From an uncultured Clostridia bacterium (GTDB lineage Bacteria; Bacillota_I; Bacilli_A; RF39; UBA660), in assembly GCA_947165945.1 (NCBI GenBank), contig CAMVCF010000003.1:1-56195 (forward strand): a stretch of DNA of 56,195 nucleotides, in the 5' to 3' direction. Position numbers and translations under genes: made by a program. Position 1 is the stretch's first letter; each line of letters starts with the position of its first letter. Below the pieces are notes generated by a model, which had not been told where the DNA came from, searched no databases, and saw only the letters and a list, made by a program, of their open reading frames with translations. Of the stretch, positions 1 through 41,478 are shown piece by piece.

Positions 1-439
1 AATATAAAAAATTATAAATTAATTTATATTTATTTTTTAAATGATTTCTCATGTATTCAATATTATCTATTTTTTTAATCCAAAGAAAGTACCAATTAGT
101 TCTATTTAATATATTAATAGATACTCCCCTATTAAATTCTATTATATTTCTTATATTTATCTTTTCCTTAGAATTTATTTCTAATAAAATTAAACAGTAA
201 TAATTATTATCTTTTTTAGTTAAAATACTTCCCTCTTTATTTAAAATAATTTTATTTATTTTTTTATTATTAAAAATCATATAATTATTTAAACTTAAAA
301 TAGAATTTATATCTTCTAAATTACCTTTATACTTATAAAAGGCAAAAAAATAATTTTTAAAGCTAAAATAATAATCATTATTACACTTTTCTATTCGATC
401 TGGTAATAAAAAATAATAGTAATTTAATAAATCTTTCAT
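1..439 (-). CDS. YutH/CotS-like spore coat kinase-fold protein, N-terminal part (runs off the window edge; absent from the ORF track)
   Basis: Read manually: SD AGGTGA at 443-448, ATG at 439, open to position 1 (MKDLLNYYYFLLPDRIEK...NRTNWYFLWIKKIDNIEY). WxxLWxKKID resembles the YutH WxxLWxKRID motif, and a NifU gene (yutI-like) is nearby as in Bacillus. Confidence 0.65.
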   Translation of the reverse strand, partial: MKDLLNYYYFLLPDRIEKCNNDYYFSFKNYFFAFYKYKGNLEDINSILSLNNYMIFNNKKINKIILNKEGSILTKKDNNYYCLILLEINSKEKINIRNIIEFNRGVSINILNRTNWYFLWIKKIDNIEYMRNHLKNKYKLIYNFLY

Positions 440-471
440 AAATCACCTATTTAATTTTATGTCAAATAAAC

Positions 472-500
472 TTGACAAATGATTAAATATAAATTATCAT
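472..500 (+). promoter_or_regulatory. sigma-A promoter
   Basis: TTGACA (472-477), 17-nt spacer, TATCAT (495-500), upstream of SD GGAG and ATG 523. Confidence 0.7.
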
Positions 501-522
501 ACAAACTAAGGGAGAAGTAGTA

Positions 523-942
523 ATGGATAAAAAATATTATTTAGGATACTTAAGAGATCCTTTAAAAATAGTTGAAAATGGTTTTCAAGAAATAGAAGAA
601 ATAGAAGTTATTTTAATAAAAGAAAATGATTCTTTTAAAGAATTTACAACTGAATCAAATGTTTTTATTTTAAATAAAAATGAAACTGTAGATGGACATA
701 AATTATTTAACTTAAATTCCACTTTAATTGGAAGATATGGTCAAGAATTAACATTTGATGATGTAAGAGTTTATTTTAAAAAATTAGGAGTTGAAGGAAT
801 TGTAACTTATACTAATAACATTGTAACTTATACAACTAATTATTTAAAGCAACTAATAAAAAATACAAGAAAAAAAGCAATTCTTGGAGAAAAAGAATAC
901 CAAGAAGAAGTTAAAAAGTTTGAAAAAACTTATAATAAATAA
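523..942 (+). CDS. hypothetical protein
   Basis: 139-aa ORF with SD and promoter; no family recognised. Confidence 0.75.
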   Translation: MDKKYYLGYLRDPLKIVENGFQEIEEIEVILIKENDSFKEFTTESNVFILNKNETVDGHKLFNLNSTLIGRYGQELTFDDVRVYFKKLGVEGIVTYTNNIVTYTTNYLKQLIKNTRKKAILGEKEYQEEVKKFEKTYNK

Positions 943-951
943 GGAGAATTT

Positions 952-1236
952 ATGAAAGAAAAAATAGAAAATGTTTTAGATAAACTAAGACCTTATTTGA
1001 TCAATGATGGTGGAAACGTTGAATTTGTTGATTATCGTGATGGAATTTGTTATTTAAAATTTCTTGGTCATTGTGCAAACTGCTCTTTAATGTCTGTAAC
1101 TTTAGATGAAGGAATTAAAGAAGCTTTAATTAATGAAATACCTGAAGTTATAGATGTTAAATTAGTAGGAAATGATATTTTGGATGACGATGAAATTAAT
1201 TTTTTTGATGTAAACTTAGATGATGATTTTGAATAA
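952..1236 (+). CDS. NifU/NfuA-family Fe-S cluster protein (YutI-like)
   Basis: LRPYLINDGGNVEFV...GHCANCSLM, NifU CxxC motif; SD AGGAG. Confidence 0.9.
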   Translation: MKEKIENVLDKLRPYLINDGGNVEFVDYRDGICYLKFLGHCANCSLMSVTLDEGIKEALINEIPEVIDVKLVGNDILDDDEINFFDVNLDDDFE

Positions 1237-1284
1237 TTGATCATCTTTTTTTTAAATATGTGATACAATAAAAGAGGTGATTTT

Positions 1285-1980
1285 ATGAAAATTAAAAAAA
1301 TATTTTTATTTATAGGACTTTTTCTTTTATTTTTATTTAATGATTTATTTTATTTAATACCTTTATCTATTTTAAAAATAGATTATAATTCATTAAGTTA
1401 TAATACAGAGTCTATTTTATCGCTTGTTGGATCAATTTGTACAGCCTTAATTATCTTTATCATTTATCGAAAGTATTTAAAAAGTAAAATAATTGATTAT
1501 AAGGCTAATTTTAAAAAATATATGGATATAGGATTTAAATACTGGATGATTGGTCTTGTTTCAATGTTTGTGAGTAATATTTTAATTTCCTTATTTAGTC
1601 CCGTTCATGAAGCTAATAATGAGGCTTTAGTTCAAGAAATGTTAAAACAAGCTCCATTTATAACTTTTATTAGTGCAGCACTAGTTGCACCATTTCTTGA
1701 AGAAATGTTATTTAGAAAAAGTTTTGGAGATATTTTTAAAAACAAAAAAATTATGGTTATAGCAAGTGGTATATTATTTGGACTTTTACATGTAGTGTTT
1801 TCTATGGAAACTCTTTGGGATTTACTTTATGTTATACCTTATGGAATGCTTGGATATGGATTTGCATGTAGTTTAGAAAAAACTGATAATGTATATGTTC
1901 CAATGACATTTCATATAATCCATAATACAATCTTAACTCTAGCATCTATTATAATGACCTTTTTAACGGAGATTCTATGA
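1285..1980 (+). CDS. CPBP (Abi/CAAX) family intramembrane glutamic endopeptidase
   Basis: APFLEEMLFRK, FGLLH and HIIHN motifs; multi-pass hydrophobic. Confidence 0.9.
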   Translation: MKIKKIFLFIGLFLLFLFNDLFYLIPLSILKIDYNSLSYNTESILSLVGSICTALIIFIIYRKYLKSKIIDYKANFKKYMDIGFKYWMIGLVSMFVSNILISLFSPVHEANNEALVQEMLKQAPFITFISAALVAPFLEEMLFRKSFGDIFKNKKIMVIASGILFGLLHVVFSMETLWDLLYVIPYGMLGYGFACSLEKTDNVYVPMTFHIIHNTILTLASIIMTFLTEIL

Positions 1981-2831
1981 TTACTCGAAGTGAAAAAAAT
2001 AAAAAAATTCAAAAAAAAATTTTTCATGAAGAAAATCAAAAAAAACTTAGAAAATTTTCTAAAATAATTGGTAGTATTTTAGGACTTATTATACTAATTT
2101 TATTATATGGAATGTTTATCGGATCAAAAGTAGTTATTGTAAAAGAATATAAAGTAACATCAAATGAATTACCAAATAGTTTTCATGGAGTAAAAGTTGT
2201 ACATATAAGTGATATTTTATATAATAGTTTAAATGAAAAAGATCTAAATACTATTCAAAAAAAAATAAATGAATTAAAACCTGATATTATTGTTTTTACA
2301 GGAAACTTAAAAAAAGTAGAATTAGAACTTTCCAAAAAAGAAATAGAAATACTCGAAAATTTCTTTAAAGATTTAAATGCTAGTTTAGAAAAATATGCTA
2401 TTATAGGAAATAAAGATGATGATAGCTTTTATGTTATAATGGAAAATAGTAATTTTAAGGTTATGAATAATAAACAAGAAAATTTATATCGAAAAGATTC
2501 TAATCCTATTGAAATAATTGGATTTGATACTAATAATTTAAATTTTGAAAATTTAAAAAAGGAAAACTATTCTATTTGTCTTTTTTCAAATCCCGATAAA
2601 ATTAATGACATTTTAAAAAATATTTCTTGTAATCTAGCCCTTGCAGGAGAAACTCTTGGTGGTGAAATAAAACTTTTTAATAAACCATTACTTGATAATC
2701 ATAAATATAATTCAGAATACTCTAAAATTGAAAATGGTGAATTTTATATTTCAAATGGTCTTGGTAATGAAATCAATGTAAGATATTTTAATCATCCAGC
2801 AATTAATTTTTATAGACTTACTAAATATTAA
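1977..2831 (+). CDS. membrane-anchored calcineurin-like metallophosphoesterase (YkuE-like, partly degenerate motifs)
   Basis: VVHISDI, PDIIVFTGN, AIIGNKD, SNGLG; N-terminal TM helix; ATGA overlap with the upstream gene. Confidence 0.8.
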   Translation: MITRSEKNKKIQKKIFHEENQKKLRKFSKIIGSILGLIILILLYGMFIGSKVVIVKEYKVTSNELPNSFHGVKVVHISDILYNSLNEKDLNTIQKKINELKPDIIVFTGNLKKVELELSKKEIEILENFFKDLNASLEKYAIIGNKDDDSFYVIMENSNFKVMNNKQENLYRKDSNPIEIIGFDTNNLNFENLKKENYSICLFSNPDKINDILKNISCNLALAGETLGGEIKLFNKPLLDNHKYNSEYSKIENGEFYISNGLGNEINVRYFNHPAINFYRLTKY

Positions 2832-2854
2832 TACAACTTTTGTTGTATTTTTTT
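2830..2854. terminator. intrinsic terminator between convergent genes
   Basis: AATACAAC-TTTT-GTTGTATT hairpin plus T tract. Confidence 0.75.
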
Positions 2855-2873
2855 ATAAAAAAGATTTATATTT

Positions 2874-3971
2874 CTATAAATCTTCATCTATTAATTTATT
2901 ATCTTTTATATCAACAGAACTAATACTATCAAATTTTTTCTTAATCTTGTCTGTTGTATTTGAAAATGCTTCTATATCTTTATTTACTGTTATAACACTA
3001 CGAGAAAGTTTATCAAATCTTTCTTTAAATCTTGTAAATTCTACTCCTAATTTATTTAACTCTTCATGAATTATACTTGTATATTTATCTCTTTCAATGT
3101 TTTGAATAATCATTAAGATCATTGTTAAAGTAGATATTAAAGTTGTAGGACTTGTCATCCAAACTCGTTTTTTATAGGCATATTCAATTAAATCAGTATG
3201 ATATGCATTAATCTCGGCAAATATGGCTTCTGCTGGAATAAACATCATAGCTTGATCACTTGTTTCACCATCAATTATATATTTATAACTAATATCATCA
3301 ATATGCTTTTTTACATCTCCCTTAAATTTTTTATATGCAATTGTTCTTTCTTCATCACTTCTTTTTTTATCTACCATTATACGATAGTTTTCTAAAGGAA
3401 ACTTAGAATCAATTGCTATAGTTCCTAAAGGTTTAGGGGCAAAAATAACTGAATCAGCTATATATCCATTGGACATTTTTACTTGTTTTTGATATATAGA
3501 ATCATTTTTCTCTCCAAATATATTTTTTAAAATTAAATATAAATTTACTTCTCCAAATATTCCTCTTGTTTTTTTATCAGTTAAAATATTCTCAAGGGAA
3601 AGAATATCCATTGATAAATTATCTATTTTCTTTTGAGCCTCATCTATTTTTGAAAGTCTTTCTAATACATTTACAAATGTTTTATTAGTTTTTTCAAAGT
3701 TTTCATCAATTCGAGAATTTACTTTTTCATTAATTTCACTAAGTTTAACATCTAATTTATCGTTTACTTTATCAAAATTTAAAGTCATATCTTTATTTAA
3801 GTTGTCTTTCATACTATTAATTTCATTATTAATATTTATTTCAAATCTTGAAAGTCTTTCCAAAAAATCCATTGTATTTTCTTTGGGTCTTTTTAATTTT
3901 AGAAAAATAATAACATTAAAAATAATTAACAAAACTAAAAGTACGAGAATTATAATATTAAATAAATCCAT
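2874..3971 (-). CDS. rmuC: DNA recombination protein RmuC
   Basis: KTRGIFGEVNL, IDSKFPL, AMMFIPAEAIFAEI; start taken at ATG 3971 (SD GGAG; TAATG coupling with rnjB). Confidence 0.9.
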   Translation of the reverse strand: MDLFNIIILVLLVLLIIFNVIIFLKLKRPKENTMDFLERLSRFEININNEINSMKDNLNKDMTLNFDKVNDKLDVKLSEINEKVNSRIDENFEKTNKTFVNVLERLSKIDEAQKKIDNLSMDILSLENILTDKKTRGIFGEVNLYLILKNIFGEKNDSIYQKQVKMSNGYIADSVIFAPKPLGTIAIDSKFPLENYRIMVDKKRSDEERTIAYKKFKGDVKKHIDDISYKYIIDGETSDQAMMFIPAEAIFAEINAYHTDLIEYAYKKRVWMTSPTTLISTLTMILMIIQNIERDKYTSIIHEELNKLGVEFTRFKERFDKLSRSVITVNKDIEAFSNTTDKIKKKFDSISSVDIKDNKLIDEDL

Positions 3972-36116: not shown

Positions 36117-36145
36117 AAGAAAGTCATAAGACTTTCTTTTTTTTT
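36116..36145. terminator. bidirectional terminator between ponA and rbgA
   Basis: AAAGAAAGTC-ATAA-GACTTTCTTT plus T tract. Confidence 0.8.
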
Positions 36146-37022
36146 AATCAAACGTAATACCTTTAATTCTTCCTTCTTTTAAATCATTGATAATAATTGT
36201 ATAAACTTTATCATAATCAATCAAATTACCTTGCTTTATTGAACTAGTGTTTTCAGCAATACATTTAAATATTTTTTCTAAATCAAATTCAATATTTTCA
36301 TCTAATTTATATCTATTTATTAAAATATTTTTATAATTATTATATAAATATGTAATAATATAGGAAGCAATTTCTTCTTTATCTAAAATATCTTCATTAA
36401 TTGATGCAAAACTTGCTAAATTAAGGCCTACTTCTTTTGCTTCAATCTTAGGGTATAAAATACCGGGTGTATCCATAAGTTCTATTGTATTTCCTACTCT
36501 AATCCAACTAATTCCTTTAGTAACACCAGCTCGATTTCCTGTTTTTAAACCATTCTTTCCACTTATTCTATTTATCAAAGTACTCTTTCCAACATTTGGT
36601 GCTCCAATAACTATTGCTCGATAAGTTCTTGGTTTAAGCCCCTTCTTTATTCTAGAATCATTAATATCTTTTAATAAATTATTAGTTTTATTAACAAGAT
36701 CATTTATTTCTTTTTTAGAAATATCTTTTAAGTTTAATATTACAACTATATATTTATTTTTTAAATCTTCTAATATTTTATTAGTTTTTTCTTTATCACA
36801 AAGATCATACTTTGTAACTATTATTATTCTTTTTTTATCTTTCACTAATAAATCCAAATCAATTATTTTAGAAGATATTGGCATTCTTGCATCTAATACT
36901 TCATAGACAATATCAATTAAAGATAATTTTTCTTTTATTTCTCTTTTTGTTTTAGCCATGTGTCCAGGATACCAGCTGATATTGGTTTTGTCTAGCCCAG
37001 CATTTCCATTTGTATTACTCAT
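36144..37022 (-). CDS. rbgA: ribosome biogenesis GTPase RbgA (YlqF)
   Basis: ISWYPGHMAKT, EVLDARMP, GAPNVGKSTLIN, GVTK, DTPGILYP; SD AAGGAG before ATG 37022. Confidence 0.95.
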   Translation of the reverse strand: MSNTNGNAGLDKTNISWYPGHMAKTKREIKEKLSLIDIVYEVLDARMPISSKIIDLDLLVKDKKRIIIVTKYDLCDKEKTNKILEDLKNKYIVVILNLKDISKKEINDLVNKTNNLLKDINDSRIKKGLKPRTYRAIVIGAPNVGKSTLINRISGKNGLKTGNRAGVTKGISWIRVGNTIELMDTPGILYPKIEAKEVGLNLASFASINEDILDKEEIASYIITYLYNNYKNILINRYKLDENIEFDLEKIFKCIAENTSSIKQGNLIDYDKVYTIIINDLKEGRIKGITFD

Positions 37023-37156
37023 AAGAATCACTCCTTTTTGTAAGAAACTTTACTTATCAATTATATCACAAAATTTCAATTATTTAGATACCTTAATGCA
37101 TCTTCAAGAATATTTTAATATTTAAATATTATTCAACATAAACATAAATAATTTAC

Positions 37157-37192
37157 AAAAAAACAGCTGTTTTTTTATTTAACAAGCTGTTT
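37157..37192 (-). terminator. terminator after cassette D gene
   Basis: AAACAGCT...AGCTGTTT inverted repeat with A tract. Confidence 0.65.
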
Positions 37193-37723
37193 TACTTTTC
37201 CTTTATTCGAATCAAATTCTGATTCAAACATGATATGGGTTATTTCGAAAATAGACTTAATATAATTATCAAATATTCCTTTTTCTCTTAATTCAAAAAT
37301 AAATTTTTTAACTTTTTCCTCATCACATATATAACAATTACTAAAATCAAAAGCATATGGAGAACCAACTTGTTTACCACTTAATTCATAGTTACTATTA
37401 TAAGCAATAAATAATTCTGTACCCGAAATAAATTCTCTTGCTTTAAATCTATTAAACTTATGTGCTGCTGGACACAAATTAATGCTATGTGCTATCATTC
37501 TTTGGAATGCCATACTTAAATTATTATTAACAATCATAAACATTTTTTGATATTCTTTTGGAACACCATTTTTTTCGAATATTTCTGTAGCATTTCCATC
37601 AGTAAAAGAAATCATACTTGGCTGTGAATATATTATGCTTCTATCATCTTTATCAGCATTTAAAATATGCATAATCAAATATATATTCTTTGCATCCACT
37701 CCAATATATTTTTTAGCTGACAT
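37175..37723 (-). CDS. hypothetical protein (cassette D cargo)
   Basis: 182 aa, SD GGAGG; no family recognised. Confidence 0.75.
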   Translation of the reverse strand: MSAKKYIGVDAKNIYLIMHILNADKDDRSIIYSQPSMISFTDGNATEIFEKNGVPKEYQKMFMIVNNNLSMAFQRMIAHSINLCPAAHKFNRFKAREFISGTELFIAYNSNYELSGKQVGSPYAFDFSNCYICDEEKVKKFIFELREKGIFDNYIKSIFEITHIMFESEFDSNKGKVKQLVK

Positions 37724-37790
37724 AACTCCTCCTCACCAGGTATTATAAAACTTTCTTTTTATTAATTAAATCAATTATACAAAAATATAC

Positions 37791-37815
37791 AAAAAATCAG
37801 ATAGCAACTATCTGA
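37791..37815 (-). terminator. intrinsic terminator inside the cassette D arm
   Basis: TCAGATAG-TTG-CTATCTGA-TTTTTT on minus. Confidence 0.75.
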
Positions 37816-38009
37816 CAAATTTATATAAAAACACTCTTTTTTCTAAAAGTTAGACCGTCAATACCACCCTTTTTAAATATCGCTATTTTTGGATGATTTT
37901 TACCGAATTTTATCAAATTTTAGTTTTTTTTTACTTTTTTTAATAAAAAAATGTAATAAGTAAACATTCATTTTCCCTTGATTTTATAAGGTTTTATAAA
38001 AATGTTTGA

Positions 38010-38069
38010 CTAAATCCATACCAAACAGTTTATATGAGTTTTATTTTCATTCATTTGAATTACCTCCTC
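38010..38069 (-). pseudogene. orphan rbgA 5' stub (MNENKTHINCLVWI*) / att-like junction between cassettes C and D
   Basis: AGGAGG-TAATTCAA-ATG AAT GAA AAT AAA ACT CAT ATA AAC TGT TTG, versus rbgA AAA ACC AAT ATC AGC TGG TAT. Confidence 0.75.
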
Positions 38070-38590
38070 TTAGTTAATAATTTTTCCTTTGTTTTACTTA
38101 AATATTCTTTTCTTTTTTCTAATTTATCTGGATGATGTGCAAGTGCATCACATCTTTGTATTTCATAAAGTTTCAAACATAATTCATAATTATTCTCAAT
38201 TTGTTCACTACTAATTGGTGTATCATGGTTTTCAATTAAATAACATATTAAATTAATATATTCTTCATTATAACCTAACCTATGTAATATTTCCTCCGAC
38301 ATTTTTGCTGATACCATAGGATGATTTTTAAAATGTCTAATTTCTTCATCTTGATATGAAAAAGGTTTACCAATATCATGAAGTAATAAACACAATCTTA
38401 TATCAAAATCTTTTTCTGATAAGGTAAGAGCTAATAACGTATGATTCCATACATCTAAATGATGATGAGGATGTCTGTGTTCAAATCCAATCATATTTTC
38501 TATTTCTGGAATTAGTTTCAATAAATAATCTATATTTTCATTAATAGATTCTACAATATTCTCTGATAATAAAATTGATTGCAAATCCAT
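38060..38590 (-). CDS. HD-domain phosphohydrolase (resembles the HD domain of CCA-adding enzymes; cassette C cargo)
   Basis: HHHLDVWNHT, LLLHDIGKP, HPMVSA, IENHD, CDALAH; SD GAGG before ATG 38590. Confidence 0.8.
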   Translation of the reverse strand: MDLQSILLSENIVESINENIDYLLKLIPEIENMIGFEHRHPHHHLDVWNHTLLALTLSEKDFDIRLCLLLHDIGKPFSYQDEEIRHFKNHPMVSAKMSEEILHRLGYNEEYINLICYLIENHDTPISSEQIENNYELCLKLYEIQRCDALAHHPDKLEKRKEYLSKTKEKLLTKRR

Positions 38591-38769
38591 GTCTATTACC
38601 TCGACTTTCTTATTATTAGGTGGCGTAATCACCTTACTAATTCCTCCACTATTTTGCATTAAAAATAGTCATTTAATTTTTGTCTGTTTTATCATATTTT
38701 TATGTTAAACATGCTAGATGTTCACTCTCACAATCCCTTATTTTCCCTAGGGTTTCTCCTATTCTTGGA

Positions 38770-38827
38770 TAAATCGTAATCAACCAGTTTATATTAGTTT
38801 TATTTTCATTCATTTGGATTACCTCCC
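38770..38827 (-). pseudogene. orphan rbgA 5' stub (MNENKTNINWLITIY...) / junction between cassettes B and C
   Basis: GGGAGG-TAATCCAA-ATG AAT GAA AAT AAA ACT AAT ATA AAC TGG TTG; ATG at 38813. Confidence 0.8.
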
Positions 38828-39814
38828 TATCTTTATTTCATTATCATCTTGTTTAGTTTTATTAACCACTAATTGTTCCAATGAAAAATAATTTAAATCT
38901 TTTGTATCAATTGATTCATTAACGCAAAAATTATTATAAAGCAATGACTTACCAGATACAATAATATCAAATATGTAATCATGCGGATTATTATATATAC
39001 AATTTAACATTGCCTTTTGCATTGTCATTTCATCAAACAATCTTTTAGTTGGAATTGCTATAACCATAGGTTTTGTATCTTTGAATTTATTCCAATATTT
39101 ATTAAAGAAAGATAATACTTCATTACCTTCATTTTTAGATAAATCATAATATTTTATTAATGAATTCACACATTCAAGTGCATCATTATAATTCTTAGTG
39201 GAATAACCCTTTTCTTTATGATAGTTAACTAATTGATGATATACAGAGGCTTCACCACAGAACAATCTAAACCATTCAGGTCCATTACTATAATTCATAA
39301 TTTGTAATGGATCAGAGTTGCAAAATATACCAGTATAATCATGATTAAAATCATTAATTACAAATTGAAATGGATTTACTTTATCATACTTGCTAAACAA
39401 TTGATTCATAACTAAAATATCATTTTTTTCTTCATTATCTTCTTTCTTCACAAAACCATTTTTAATTAGTTCATCGCCATATAAACTATTAGTAGAATGA
39501 AAAATATAACCATTAATATAAAAATTTAAATAAGCATACTTCTCTATTTCACCAATTCTTGATTGTATATTCCCTTTGCTAATATTCATAATTGAGGCAA
39601 TTCTATTTATTATGAATTCTTTTTTGTTATCAGAGTGAATATATTCAATTATTCCATCATTGTTTTTAAATAATATGCAGTAATTAATTATTTGAGCAAT
39701 CAAAACAGATTTCTCATGACGCTCATCAAAAGATGCATCATAATCAAATTGACACATTTCTTGAATCTCACTACTACTTAAAGTATTCTCAACTAAATTA
39801 CCAAATTCATTCAT
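38819..39814 (-). CDS. hypothetical protein (cassette B cargo), possible ADP-ribosyltransferase-like fold
   Basis: SD GAGGTG before ATG 39814; YIFHSTNSLYGDELIKNG resembles the ART/PARP first strand (xHGT...I..nG); weak. Confidence 0.6.
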   Translation of the reverse strand: MNEFGNLVENTLSSSEIQEMCQFDYDASFDERHEKSVLIAQIINYCILFKNNDGIIEYIHSDNKKEFIINRIASIMNISKGNIQSRIGEIEKYAYLNFYINGYIFHSTNSLYGDELIKNGFVKKEDNEEKNDILVMNQLFSKYDKVNPFQFVINDFNHDYTGIFCNSDPLQIMNYSNGPEWFRLFCGEASVYHQLVNYHKEKGYSTKNYNDALECVNSLIKYYDLSKNEGNEVLSFFNKYWNKFKDTKPMVIAIPTKRLFDEMTMQKAMLNCIYNNPHDYIFDIIVSGKSLLYNNFCVNESIDTKDLNYFSLEQLVVNKTKQDDNEIKIGR

Positions 39815-39989
39815 ACATTTCACCTCGTTTTATTAAAAGTTAGACTCCTGTCACCACTCCCTAAATACTATGGTATTTTTGGAGTTCTTTTATCTATTTT
39901 TTATACTTTTTAGTAATTATTTATTAAAAAATGTAATTACTATATATTAACTTTTTTCTTATTTTATAAGAGTTTCATGAATAGTTAGA

Positions 39990-40049
39990 CTAAATTGTCA
40001 TCAACCAATTGATATTAGTTTTATTTTCATTTATTTGGATCAACTCCTT
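39990..40049 (-). pseudogene. orphan rbgA 5' stub with start codon decayed to ATA / junction between cassettes A and B
   Basis: AAGGAG-TTGATCCAA-ATA AAT GAA AAT AAA ACT AAT ATC AAT TGG TTG ATG ACA ATT TAG. Confidence 0.75.
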
Positions 40050-40056
40050 TTATTTA

Positions 40057-40620
40057 TTAAAATTTTAATATATTTTTTGCTGATTCATATTGTACTTTAA
40101 CAAGCACTTTACCCTTATCAGACATCTTATTATAACTTCTATCTAATTTATCCATAACAAATTTACTTCCATCATCTATAGATAGGCCTTTTTCTTTATA
40201 AACCATACTTAAAAGCGATGGAATACTATAAAAATGTGCCATAGCATCAGAATCAGCTACACATATTTCTTCAGGTGATGTTTTATCAGCTAACCTGCTT
40301 CCACGATGGTTTAAAATACATTTTTTAATTAATTCTATTTTATCAGTTGGATAACATTCAGCAAGTAAAAGTTGTTCTGCTATATCTGCACCTATAATAT
40401 GATGCTCTTCAGTAAAACTTACATCTGTTACACTAGCAATGTCATGAAGAAGAGCTGCTATTGCAACTATTTCTAAATCTGCACCATATTCACTAGCATA
40501 TTTTTTTGCTAGTTCATAAACTATTTTTATGTGATGGTCCCATGCTCCTATCCCATATGCATTTGTAGGTTGTTCACATCTATTTTTAACTTCATTATAC
40601 ATTTTATCTTCAATTGTCAT
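40057..40620 (-). CDS. HD-domain phosphohydrolase (cassette A cargo)
   Basis: HHIKIV, ALLHDIA, EHHIIGA, ILNHRG, VADSDAMAH; SD AGGAG. Confidence 0.85.
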   Translation of the reverse strand: MTIEDKMYNEVKNRCEQPTNAYGIGAWDHHIKIVYELAKKYASEYGADLEIVAIAALLHDIASVTDVSFTEEHHIIGADIAEQLLLAECYPTDKIELIKKCILNHRGSRLADKTSPEEICVADSDAMAHFYSIPSLLSMVYKEKGLSIDDGSKFVMDKLDRSYNKMSDKGKVLVKVQYESAKNILKF

Positions 40621-40843
40621 ATTATTTCTCCTGCTCTAATTGTTTAACCATCAATACCAAGTATCAAATATAATTTATTTTTATATAAAGTATGCCTCAA
40701 AACAATTGTCGGCATATTACAAGCCAGTACCCTAATTCCTCTCAAAAATGAGTATATTTTAACCTATTTTTTCAAATTTTTCCTTCTTTTTTATTAAAAC
40801 TTGCAAGATCTAATTTGCTAAAAAGTCCAATTTTACAAGAGTT

Positions 40844-40912
40844 TTATTGATATACGGCATAAATACAAGCCAACCAATTAATTATTTTATCATCATTCAT
40901 TTTTTCACCTCA
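40844..40912 (-). pseudogene. orphan rbgA 5' stub right after lepB (MNDDKIINWLACIYAVYQ*), probably the ancestral start
   Basis: GAGGTG-AAAAA-ATG AAT GAT GAT AAA ATA ATT AAT TGG TTG; ATG at 40900. Confidence 0.7.
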
Positions 40913-40983
40913 TACAATATAGTTAAATTTATTTAAACGATTAAACATCCCACTTTTAAATTTATAAATTTTAAACTATATTT

Positions 40984-41478
40984 TTATTTTTTTAGTCCAA
41001 ATCTATTAAAAGGAAATAAGACAAGAGATGTTTTTCCAAGTATTTCATCTTTACTAATTAAACCAATATATCTAGAATCAAGGCTATCTAATCGATTATC
41101 TCCAACAACAAAATAATAATTGTCAGGGATTTTTTCTTCTAAAATATAATCTAATGTCTCTTTATGAAGAAAATTTTCTTCAACTAATTCTTGATTAATA
41201 TATAGTTTATTATCCTTATACTCCAAAGTATCCCCTGGAAGTCCAATTACTCTTTTAATTAAATATTCTCTATTTTTTTTAATAACTACTCTATCAAATC
41301 TTTTAATAGAATTAAATCGATAACTAATTTTATCTAAAATCATAATATCTTTATCATATAAAGTATTATTCATACTATTTCCGTTTACCCTTATTGGAGT
41401 AATAACAAATTGTTTAATAAGTAATACTATTACTATAACAACTATATATCCAAGATATTCTTTTAATTTTTCATTCAT
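40984..41478 (-). CDS. lepB: signal peptidase I
   Basis: VNGNSMNNTL (catalytic Ser), LIKRVIGLPGD (catalytic Lys), VGDNRLDSLDSR. Confidence 0.93.
   Translation of the reverse strand: MNEKLKEYLGYIVVIVIVLLIKQFVITPIRVNGNSMNNTLYDKDIMILDKISYRFNSIKRFDRVVIKKNREYLIKRVIGLPGDTLEYKDNKLYINQELVEENFLHKETLDYILEEKIPDNYYFVVGDNRLDSLDSRYIGLISKDEILGKTSLVLFPFNRFGLKK

Follow-up and report, generated by a model that had tools for sequence, protein, structure and literature searches.

Why should the ribosome-binding site and first codons of rbgA, an essential gene, occur four more times upstream of the gene itself, each copy stranded in front of another gene? This question is raised by the interval between lepB and rbgA in a 56,195-nucleotide stretch of DNA (the window) from an uncultured bacterium of the UBA660 lineage. 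A sequence-only reading of the window had proposed that circles, each supplying a replacement rbgA start, integrated here repeatedly and site-specifically. Our comparison with related genomes supports this proposal by the variation of the interval, by the occurrence of the same arms elsewhere and by the type of the first stranded start. We put at about 0.8 the probability that the four units are mobile gene cassettes, stacked by repeated site-specific integration of circles at the TG of the rbgA tryptophan codon. In a wider sense, relatives show the locus to be an example of a widespread integron-like gene-capture site at the start of rbgA, most likely run by a compact serine recombinase.

Layout of the array between lepB and rbgA

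The four stranded copies of the ribosome-binding site and first rbgA codons lie on the minus strand as first described, and each of these stubs is followed by a conserved arm and then by one cargo gene (Table 1). The Trp-to-Trp lengths of the units were reproduced exactly, and the shared arm that had been reported was seen 3' of the Trp codon of every stub, reading TTG-N6-ATTTA and, about 30 nt further on, AAAC(T/C)CT...AAAAT. All four units retain both conserved ends and an intact gene. A profile of stub and arm matches the whole 898-kb assembly in these four places only (E = 2e-12 to 5e-22), and the exact 23-mer junction pattern, read backwards, has no match in 301 genomes; the pattern is therefore not a product of chance.

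Table 1. Features of the lepB-rbgA interval, in window coordinates
Feature	Position	Strand	Description
lepB (signal peptidase I)	40984..41475	-	Pfam Peptidase_S26, E = 1.5e-44; upstream border of the array
Stub 1	40874..40914	-	Ribosome-binding site GAGGTG; ATG 40900; MNDDKIINW; TGG 40876-40874
Cassette 1	40008..40876	-	869 bp; left arm with recombinase half-site (40876 to ~40852), small hairpin and promoter-like module; half-site copy no. 2 at 40727-40708; HD-domain phosphohydrolase cargo 40620-40057; right end is stub 2
Stub 2	40034 (start codon, decayed to ATA)	-	INENKTNINW; TGG at 40007
Cassette 2	38787..40007	-	1221 bp; left arm; half-site copy no. 2 at 39857-39839; cargo of 331-334 aa (39823/39814-38819); right end is stub 3
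Stub 3	38813 (ATG)	-	MNENKTNINW; TGG at 38786
Cassette 3	38028..38786	-	759 bp; left arm; half-site copy no. 2 at 38633-38616; cargo 38659 or 38591 to 38060; right end is stub 4
Stub 4	38054 (ATG)	-	MNENKTHINC; TGT at 38027
Cassette 4	36975..38027	-	1053 bp; left arm begins TG-TTTGGTATGG; half-site copy no. 2 at 37867-37849; terminator-like hairpin 37816-37796; cargo of 182 aa (37723-37175); 3' of cargo, hairpin ~37178-37155, extended -10 TGATATAAT at 37068-37060 and ribosome-binding site
rbgA (ribosome biogenesis GTPase A), intact	36144..37022	-	Pfam MMR_HSR1; present start carried by cassette 4, ATG 37022, MSNTNGNAGLDKTNIS; ...DKTNISW-YPGHM, TGG starts 36974

The identification of the stubs as rbgA N-termini is borne out by stub 1, which is of the same type as the real rbgA starts of two same-genus relatives (MNDKIINW in G013 and MNDTIINW in G010). 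Judged by its sequence, stub 1 is probably the original chromosomal rbgA start and the left half of the attachment site. At the other end of the array, similarity to the rbgA regions of relatives sets in only 0-15 nt before the TGG, and the RbgA protein is 62-78% identical to those of the same genus from about residue 11 on. The arm of cassette 1 shares 80-87% identity over about 170 nt with arms from other genomes that belong to unrelated cassettes. Family searches gave no match for the cargoes of cassettes 2 and 4, while the HD-domain cargo of cassette 3 is similar to the HD portion of CCA-adding enzymes. Translation of this cargo likely begins at ATG 38591, the codon that matches the gene start of the cassette 3 homologues found with a short arm in two other genomes (L080 and L133; 79% nucleotide identity).

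The interval contains no tyrosine integrase and no conjugation module, and a search for serine-type recombinases of any kind found none in this assembly, which is 67% complete. The description of the array as integrase-less thus stands for the window and for this incomplete assembly but fails for the system overall, as some cassettes of relatives carry a recombinase.

Cassettes as probably exchangeable units in related genomes

The stub and arm profile detects 376 copies at about 140 loci in uncultured gut and rumen Bacilli, so that the same arms occur elsewhere by the hundreds, also adjoining recombinases. The arrays are co-oriented, comprise up to 18 units (12+6 arms on one contig in the largest, all in the same orientation) and terminate in rbgA, the start of which is matched by the profile at positions 1-46 only; lepB is a conserved neighbour and lies upstream where visible. 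Comparison of the lepB-rbgA interval, as the earlier reading had suggested, reveals a range from an empty site in one relative (G027), with about 40 bp from the lepB stop to the rbgA start, to more than 5.6 kb, with a different gene content each time. The cassettes (n=228) have a median length of 880 bp and range from 0.3 to 3.7 kb. Most hold a single gene (173/223), the longest ORF is co-oriented with rbgA in 222 of 225, and the cargo is diverse, 295 proteins falling into 170 clusters.

Between different species-representative genomes, 24 pairs of cassettes reach at least 90% identity over their full length; their neighbours, where comparable, are unrelated in 20 and common to both in 2. Single cassettes of 600-1600 bp share 94-99% identity between species with both neighbours different. 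In four pairs compared base by base, the identical stretch opens with the left-hand TGG and stops no more than 8 nt from the right-hand one, and in one of these pairs the same cassette leads to another arm in one genome and to rbgA itself in the other. At the crossover, 234 of 276 distinct arms have the codon TGG, 26 have TGC and 16 have TGT, but in rbgA the codon is invariably TGG; the third base is therefore part of the incoming arm. Stub 4, which reads TGT, departs from rbgA after TG. This revises the claim that every copy leaves rbgA after TGG-T; the crossover would instead coincide with the TG of the Trp codon (36974-36972 in the window) or lie to its left. Both the pairs and the codon counts are compatible with a 2-bp TG crossover.

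Could such exchanges proceed without a dedicated enzyme? Ordinary homologous recombination, for example after DNA uptake, might shuffle cassettes through the conserved stubs and arms, the recombinase-bearing elements having merely seeded the repeats. Stubs and arms of 45-200 nt that are 80-95% alike suffice for some homologous exchange, no recombinase is in view in most arrays, that of the window included, and three differences bunched in the last 8 nt before the TGG of one near-identical pair could be a conversion patch. However, the borders of identity fall at the same few bases of the Trp codon, although homology extends well beyond them on both sides, and the third base of this codon behaves as a base of the incoming arm. 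Moreover, the half-site beside the crossover is the most conserved portion of the arm, and units with and without a recombinase have the same two ends. We consider homologous recombination an improbable explanation of the arrays.

Slightly less probable still is that the array is a fossil, in which one or a few larger elements entered rbgA long ago and deletion and decay left one-gene units, with no movement of single cassettes. The lost start codon of stub 2, the substitutions in stub 4, the window being without a recombinase, and the finding of no near-identical copies of its four cargo genes among the array loci compared would all fit such a history. Against it stand the single cassettes that are nearly identical across species between different neighbours, the homologue of the third cargo that forms a bounded cassette in two other genomes, and the conserved ends and intact genes of all four window units. 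The fossil explanation can be compatible with the present state of the window, which would leave the account of how the array was built untouched.

The candidate enzyme and the proposed growth of the stack

The earlier reading had named both tyrosine and serine recombinases as possible neighbours of the arms; those found are of the serine type, unlike the tyrosine enzyme of Tn5253. In relatives we find a compact large serine recombinase of 404-421 aa, exemplified by a 411-aa protein (L178) with Resolvase (PF00239), Recombinase (PF07508) and zinc ribbon (PF13408) domains. In the catalytic domain S19, R17 and other residues are invariant in 17 sequences, and the fold resembles that of serine integrases (Foldseek E = 1e-18). 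The compact forms have no coiled-coil; they lack about 110 residues that are found in rbgA-adjacent relatives of 522-535 aa, and only short helices follow the ribbon in the predicted structure. Scores far below the cut-offs of the CcrB (98.8 bits against 900) and CcrA (47.2 bits against 700) models rule out assignment to the Ccr family. Among the best matches in 301 genomes of the order, rbgA lies 0.1-1.8 kb downstream on the same strand for 12 of 15 compact and all five long recombinases, and two compact recombinases are located inside an array, between arms. The sequences suggest that the array enzyme is most likely a large serine recombinase of this rbgA-adjoining clade, compact forms included, and we name it with fair confidence. 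The anatomy of the array, its variability among relatives, the sharp-bordered identity of cassettes across species and the proximity of this recombinase clade to rbgA are direct observations; the role of the enzyme, the precise dinucleotide of the crossover, the passage through circles and catalysis in trans are inferred. Arrays are commoner than the compact recombinase (about 15 of the 301 sampled genomes), and action in trans on the window cassettes is assumed because no serine recombinase was found in this incomplete assembly.

In the mechanism that we propose, a circle would integrate within the conserved ...N-W-Y/F-P-G-H-M start of rbgA, at the TG of its Trp codon. Its attachment site would consist of a ribosome-binding site with a surrogate rbgA start (typically MNENKTNINW) on one side and a half-site of about 25 bp, GTTGRTnnnnATTTAR..., on the other; in most cassettes a small hairpin and a promoter-like module come next to this half-site. 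Integration would hand rbgA the incoming start and fuse the old start to the incoming arm, giving a stub that usually stops at an in-frame TAG or TAA four codons past the Trp. Since the start brought in is almost a copy of that in the chromosome, each insertion would rebuild a usable target beside rbgA, and the stack would grow at its rbgA end. Growth at this end is suggested by a two-cassette block that is terminal in one locus (L138) and internal in another (L179), where recombinase-bearing units lie between the block and rbgA, and by two genomes (G061 and G064) in which the array is set apart from rbgA or the contig end by 30-40 kb that include tandem recombinase genes. Under this model stub 1 would be the oldest and cassette 4 the newest part of the window array. 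The window cassettes would either be mobilised in trans, the enzyme being encoded elsewhere or arriving on an incoming element, or be immobile at present. The model needs the recombinase clade to target an attR-type site, which canonical serine integrases are not known to do. Contrary to the model, arrays accompanied by two compact recombinases occur in a MAG of the same genus (G001 = G071) on contigs that do not contain rbgA, and between lepB and rbgA this MAG has four genes but no arms; either it has a second site or several strains were binned together.

A more tentative reading, to which we would give somewhat less than even odds, is that these arrays are a serine-recombinase counterpart of the integron, a last-in-first-out stack of one-gene cassettes. 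The left half-site borne by the cassette would copy the chromosomal one, so that every stub would be attP-like and the rbgA junction attB-like. Integration and excision would then be the same pairing of site types and need no directionality factor, the compact enzymes having lost the direction-enforcing coiled-coil of phage integrases. The essentiality of rbgA would anchor the stack, which would be common to many uncultured gut and rumen Bacilli, and larger elements on the same site could ferry cassettes between cells.

A true integron or CALIN, in which an IntI-type tyrosine recombinase would act on the arms as single-stranded, folded attC sites, is very improbable, and so is a Tn5253-type tyrosine-integrase system. 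Both readings could appeal to the cassettes, which are co-oriented, carry mostly one gene each and vary widely in cargo, and to the tyrosine-integrase ICEs known at the 5' end of rbgA (PMC4701971). However, DNA folds of the four window arms on both strands give no attC hairpins and are no better than shuffled sequence (z -0.84 to +0.13), no IntI-type gene adjoins an array in this genome or in about 150 array loci, the tyrosine recombinases of this genome are two Xer-sized proteins on other contigs (C16 and C8) and fragments, tyrosine-recombinase similarity in those loci amounts to one weak match outside the array of its locus, neither the tyrosine integrase nor the conjugation module of a Tn5253-type element was found in array loci, and the recombinases at the site are of the serine type. 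Identity with integrons was rejected for the lack of attC-like hairpins and of tyrosine recombinases at the arrays.

Relation to known systems

We know of essentially only integrons as gene-capture platforms of short exchangeable cassettes, and these employ a tyrosine recombinase and folded single-stranded sites. The rbgA arrays would reach a similar outcome from another enzyme family and another site logic, and loss of the site is precluded, since an essential gene lends its first codons as the platform. Their hosts are uncultivable small-genome bacteria of gut and rumen, in which the routes of gene exchange are poorly known. Compact recombinases without the coiled-coil are of practical interest as well, being small and perhaps freely reversible, with sites of a defined 50-bp class. 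For annotation, the stubs explain the frequent assembly breaks just upstream of rbgA and the mosaic-looking RbgA N-termini among close relatives in these MAGs. The earlier reading did not recognise the system as described, and our literature search found no paper on gene-cassette arrays at the rbgA start.

With integrons and CALIN the arrays share one insertion point, short, co-oriented and mostly single-gene cassettes of diverse cargo, a recombination site for each cassette, a newest cassette that adjoins the platform, and the existence of integrase-less arrays. A short ORF at the joint may help the following gene to be translated, as ORF-11 does at the integron attI1 site. In contrast to integrons, the sites read as double-stranded half-sites beside a 2-bp crossover, an essential gene's start takes the place of attI plus Pc as the platform, and most cassettes bring a promoter-like module of their own. 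To our knowledge, integrons are not known from Bacilli, including the small-genome hosts of these arrays.

The recombinase shares the Resolvase-Recombinase-zinc ribbon order and the fold of phage-type serine integrases (A118/LI, Bxb1, phiC31), and the half-site agrees with theirs in its length of about 25 bp and in having both inner and outer motifs (PMC3783163). It differs from them in the compact clade, which lacks the coiled-coil of about 110 residues that governs site pairing and direction, and in a target site whose left half is derived from the element.

SCC, SCCmec and pseudo-SCC elements at rlmH/orfX likewise use a large serine recombinase to insert circles at one end of a conserved housekeeping gene, and the element restores that end. 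Their tandem stacking leaves a copy of the site at every joint, and many units without a recombinase of their own are thought to move in trans. Such tandem accretion, recombinase-less units included, is also found in the rbgA arrays. However, SCC elements occupy the 3' end of rlmH and measure tens of kb, whereas the arrays target the first codons at the 5' end of rbgA with units of mostly one gene. In the arrays an essential gene receives its ribosome-binding site, its start codon and in some cases its promoter from the element, and the recombinase is no CcrA/B equivalog.

Streptococcal ICEs of the Tn5253/Tn5252 and Tn1549 types insert at the 5' end of rbgA with the RbgA N-terminus kept, and some of them replace the upstream region, promoter included (PMC4701971). 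They share with the arrays the target gene and gene end but are large and conjugative, use tyrosine integrases, and are flanked by direct repeats of 12-54 bp; no arrays of one-gene units are reported for them. Of the known systems, the SCC composite islands and these streptococcal ICEs at the 5' end of rbgA come closest.

The cassette array of the window

Read on the minus strand, the lepB-rbgA interval carries four additional short reading frames, each with its own ribosome-binding site and each resembling the start of RbgA as far as its conserved tryptophan. A sequence-only reading had reported these stranded starts (stubs 1 to 4), and our analysis recovers all four on the minus strand, together with the same Trp-to-Trp unit lengths of 869, 1221, 759 and 1053 bp (cassettes 1 to 4), one gene in each unit, and the conserved arm TTG-N6-ATTTA, which follows the Trp-position codon in 4 of 4 stubs and is itself followed by a small hairpin. 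The further claim that every copy leaves the rbgA sequence after TGG-T stands except for stub 4, which departs after TG. Within its own genome, a metagenome-assembled genome (MAG) that is 67% complete with about 25% G+C, the junction profile matches the 898-kb assembly at these four places only, and no arms besides the four of the window were found.

Features of the window array (window positions) and loci of relatives
Feature	Position or locus	Strand	Detail
Stub 1	ATG 40900	minus	MNDDKIINW; TGG 40876; frame 40900-40844
Stub 2	ATA 40034 (decayed start)	minus	INENKTNINW; TGG 40007; frame 40043-39990
Stub 3	ATG 38813	minus	MNENKTNINW; TGG 38786; frame 38813-38700
Stub 4	ATG 38054	minus	MNENKTHINC; TGT 38027; frame 38054-38010
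rbgA itself	ATG 37022	minus	...DKTNISW-YPGHM; TGG 36974
Half-site and second copy, cassette 1	40876-40852 with 40727-40708	minus	
Half-site and second copy, cassette 2	40007-39984 with 39857-39839	minus	
Half-site and second copy, cassette 3	38786-38765 with 38633-38616	minus	
Half-site and second copy, cassette 4	38027-38004 with 37867-37849	minus	
G071 arrays without rbgA	L176/L200 on contig C54; L201 on contig C45		
Tandem recombinase sets	L196, L198, L199 (G343, G281, G163); L197 (G108); G061:C4:106-109 kb		

The four genes carried by the cassettes (cargo) are co-oriented. Two of their products are HD-domain proteins, and neither Pfam nor NCBIfam gave a family match for cargo 2 (about 331 aa) or cargo 4 (182 aa). 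For the second HD-domain gene, the ORF from 38659 probably overcalls the start by 23 codons, because the homologues begin at the codon matching ATG 38591, where a GAGGT ribosome-binding site is present. A known defence system among the four proteins was considered and rejected, PADLOC giving only weak HD-domain similarity to the HD parts of Cas3 and Cas10. The possibility that the arms belong to a known RNA family was likewise rejected, an Rfam scan of the interval giving nothing at E values up to 1.

Cassettes among the relatives

At one extreme of the 60 relatives compared nothing lies between lepB and rbgA, and at the other the interval exceeds 5.6 kb; its gene content is different in each genome, so that both the empty site and the differing genes that the sequence-only reading would look for were found; the empty site belongs to a genome (G027) whose rbgA start reads MNINWYPGHM. 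The RbgA N-termini are mosaic among close relatives. Several begin exactly MNENKTNINW or MNNENKTNINW, the stub type of the window, and those of two genomes of the same genus start MNDKIINW and MNDTIINW, resembling stub 1. An exact 23-base pattern, made of the stub end and the first arm bases, has at least 119 matching stretches of species-representative genomes; the records are mostly from uncultured bacteria of gut or rumen under the labels Bacilli, Erysipelotrichaceae or Tenericutes, and a few are labelled otherwise. In an even sample of the order the pattern occurs in 18 of 301 genomes (14 genera), and a reversed control pattern gave zero matches in the same 301 genomes. When the same arms were searched for elsewhere with a nucleotide profile of stub plus arm, 376 copies were found in the relatives' loci examined. 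The arrays are co-oriented, the largest comprising 12 arms in one piece and 6 in another piece of a single contig; lepB lies upstream of them wherever the ends are visible, and the rbgA that ends an array matches the profile at its own start just to the Trp codon.

Judged by these sequences, the cassettes are discrete, mobile units. The 228 cassettes delimited by successive crossover points have a median length of 880 bp (range 261-3714); of 225 distinct cassettes, 222 have their longest ORF in the orientation of rbgA, and 173 of 223 are one-gene units. Their 295 cargo proteins form 170 clusters, 109 of them singletons, with RhuM, Bro-N, KilA-N, YhcG nuclease, GNAT, UDG, NADAR, Nudix, methyltransferase and HD as recurring families. 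Cargo 3 of the window has a homologue that is a bounded cassette in two other genomes, and no homologues of cargo 1, 2 and 4 were found in the relatives' loci examined. Between different species-representative genomes, 24 cassette pairs share at least 90% identity across the whole cassette, some of them 94-99%, and where neighbours could be compared these were unrelated in 20 cases and shared in 2. Aligned with their flanks, the near-identical pairs become alike at the left TGG and cease to be so no more than 8 nt past the next TGG. The cassette of one pair has another arm after it in one genome and rbgA's own G-TAT-CCG-GGC-CAT-ATG in the other, as would be expected if it is internal in the first and terminal in the second.

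Many MAG contigs of the relatives end 0-500 bp upstream of rbgA (for example G064:C99:1, G031:C12:51, G026:C60:119, G028:C101 and G016:C64), and one ends exactly at the crossover. Such breaks would be expected if the terminal cassette varies between populations or if assembly graphs are interrupted at the repeated arms. In another genome of the same genus, G071 (also G001), contigs that lack rbgA carry arrays longer than 20 kb in which two compact recombinases, described below, are encoded. One of these arrays follows gpmI, an XRE-type gene and a broken LigT-like gene; the lepB-rbgA locus of this MAG (contig C61) has four genes but is devoid of arms. This would mean either a second site or a bin of mixed strains, as MAG assemblies may be.

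The probable recombinase and the proposed exchange

The units of the window had been described as lacking a recombinase, and this is true of the whole assembly as regards serine recombinases, since none was found in the window or its own genome by Pfam Resolvase, by tblastn with fragments or with a 411-aa query. The tyrosine recombinases of the assembly are only Xer-sized and lie outside the window, and a tyrosine recombinase as the enzyme was rejected after searches of the own genome and of the relatives' array loci. Serine recombinases do occur at array-bearing rbgA loci of relatives. One genome (G024) has a fragmented Resolvase/Recombinase gene upstream of a RhuM gene that abuts rbgA, several array-bearing genomes have intact genes for compact enzymes of 404-421 aa directly upstream of rbgA, and two compact genes lie inside an array with arms on both sides. 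The 411-aa protein contains Resolvase, Recombinase and zinc-ribbon domains, and its structure model matches solved serine integrases. We used it as a query against 301 genomes of the order and took the 20 best places, among which rbgA lies 0.1-1.8 kb downstream on the same strand for 12 of 15 compact genes and for all five long relatives of 522-535 aa, four of the latter heading tandem sets of two or three recombinase genes. This adjacency marks the rbgA start as the site at which an entire clade of large serine recombinases would act, the elements that bear them ranging from one-gene size to tens of kb.

Such tandem sets, in which two or three genes encode large serine recombinases of 520-575 aa, lie about 0.5 kb upstream of rbgA, and they look like the ends of much larger elements using the same site. 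In G061 the cassette array lies about 40 kb away from rbgA. In our alignments with the long relatives, the compact enzymes show a gap of about 110 residues after the zinc ribbon and before the last strands. The missing segment is the coiled-coil, which in phage integrases determines which sites may pair. A comparison of the variable half-site "barcode" with recombinase clade in 13 recombinase-bearing units gave no clear pattern.

The Trp-position codon in 276 distinct arms is TGG in 234, TGC in 26 and TGT in 16, and in rbgA it is always TGG. Because the arms vary at the third base and rbgA is invariable, this base would travel with the incoming arm, which places the exchange at TG or to its left. 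For a serine recombinase this would most naturally be a 2-bp crossover at TG, in which case stub 4 may have its TGT from the arm of cassette 4 and not through decay. We propose that the left half of a cassette circle would mimic the rbgA start (strongly conserved ...ATGAATGAAAATAAAACTAATATAAAY-TG) and that the right half would read G-TTGRTnnnnATTTAR..., the conserved left half being long enough for a recombinase half-site of about 25 bp. Integration at TG would give rbgA the incoming start and strand the old one, with action in trans assumed for the cassettes of the window. Since both substrates share the same kind of left half, the anatomy suggests that the products would be of the same two kinds, a stub-type and an rbgA-junction-type site. 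Such like-for-like products would explain why arrays can continue to grow at the rbgA end, how a terminal cassette or block could leave without a directionality factor, and why an enzyme without the coiled-coil would be sufficient. Growth at the rbgA end is most likely because the native-type stub 1 is farthest from rbgA, because a two-cassette block that is terminal in one genome is internal in another, before recombinase-bearing units, and because 30-40 kb with tandem recombinase genes parts the array from rbgA or the contig end in G061 and G064.

Expression features and relation to known systems

A conserved in-frame stop codon, TAG or TAA, closes the stub frame four codons past the Trp codon and inside ATTTAR in 136 of 276 arms. 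Cargo starts 30-60 nt past the crossover in short arms (24 of 223 cassettes), and long arms, to which a promoter-like module is added, have a mode of 180-210 nt (102 of 223). In short-arm cassettes of relatives the cargo ATG comes a few bases past the stub stop (L133), a short gap which suggests that the stranded rbgA start serves translation of the next gene. Translational coupling along the array is also suggested, and many cargo frames enter the conserved right end and stop within the stub's first codons, with C-termini like ...KGVDPNE. The right end of cassette 4 differs from the others in that its RbgA start is longer (MSNTNGNAGLDKTNISW) and is accompanied by a hairpin and an extended -10, and it therefore also gives rbgA a predicted promoter. 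A consensus promoter scan was uninformative in the AT-rich sequence, giving 32 sites versus 37 expected.

The two-part half-site, at the conserved start of the arm, is repeated about 150-170 nt downstream in the same orientation and in slightly more compact form, immediately ahead of the ribosome-binding site of the cargo. The two copies vary in step between cassettes and share a word of at least 9 nt in 26% of 223 cassettes versus 6% of mismatched pairs, and short-arm cassettes have neither the intervening module nor the second copy, which could be an accessory recombinase site or a trace of promoter-module insertion. The nucleotide sequence of a 33-codon ORF (MRGIRVLACNMPT..., window 40644-40745, minus strand) is conserved in an arm belonging to an unrelated cassette (L152; also L069), and the ORF is probably arm sequence and not a gene, because the second half-site copy falls inside it.

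We found no description of serine-recombinase cassette arrays at rbgA in full text outside subscription journals, and the rbgA/ylqF literature on such systems yielded only general papers on serine integrases and work on streptococcal ICEs. These ICEs have tyrosine integrases and insert into rbgA at its 5' end, where the promoter is in some cases replaced by the element (PMC4701971). Integrons are the closest system in outcome, but their two defining features both fail in the rbgA arrays; attC-like folding of the arms was rejected. The closest in mechanism are the SCC elements, in which a large serine recombinase acts at the end of a housekeeping gene and units, some of them lacking a recombinase, accumulate in tandem.
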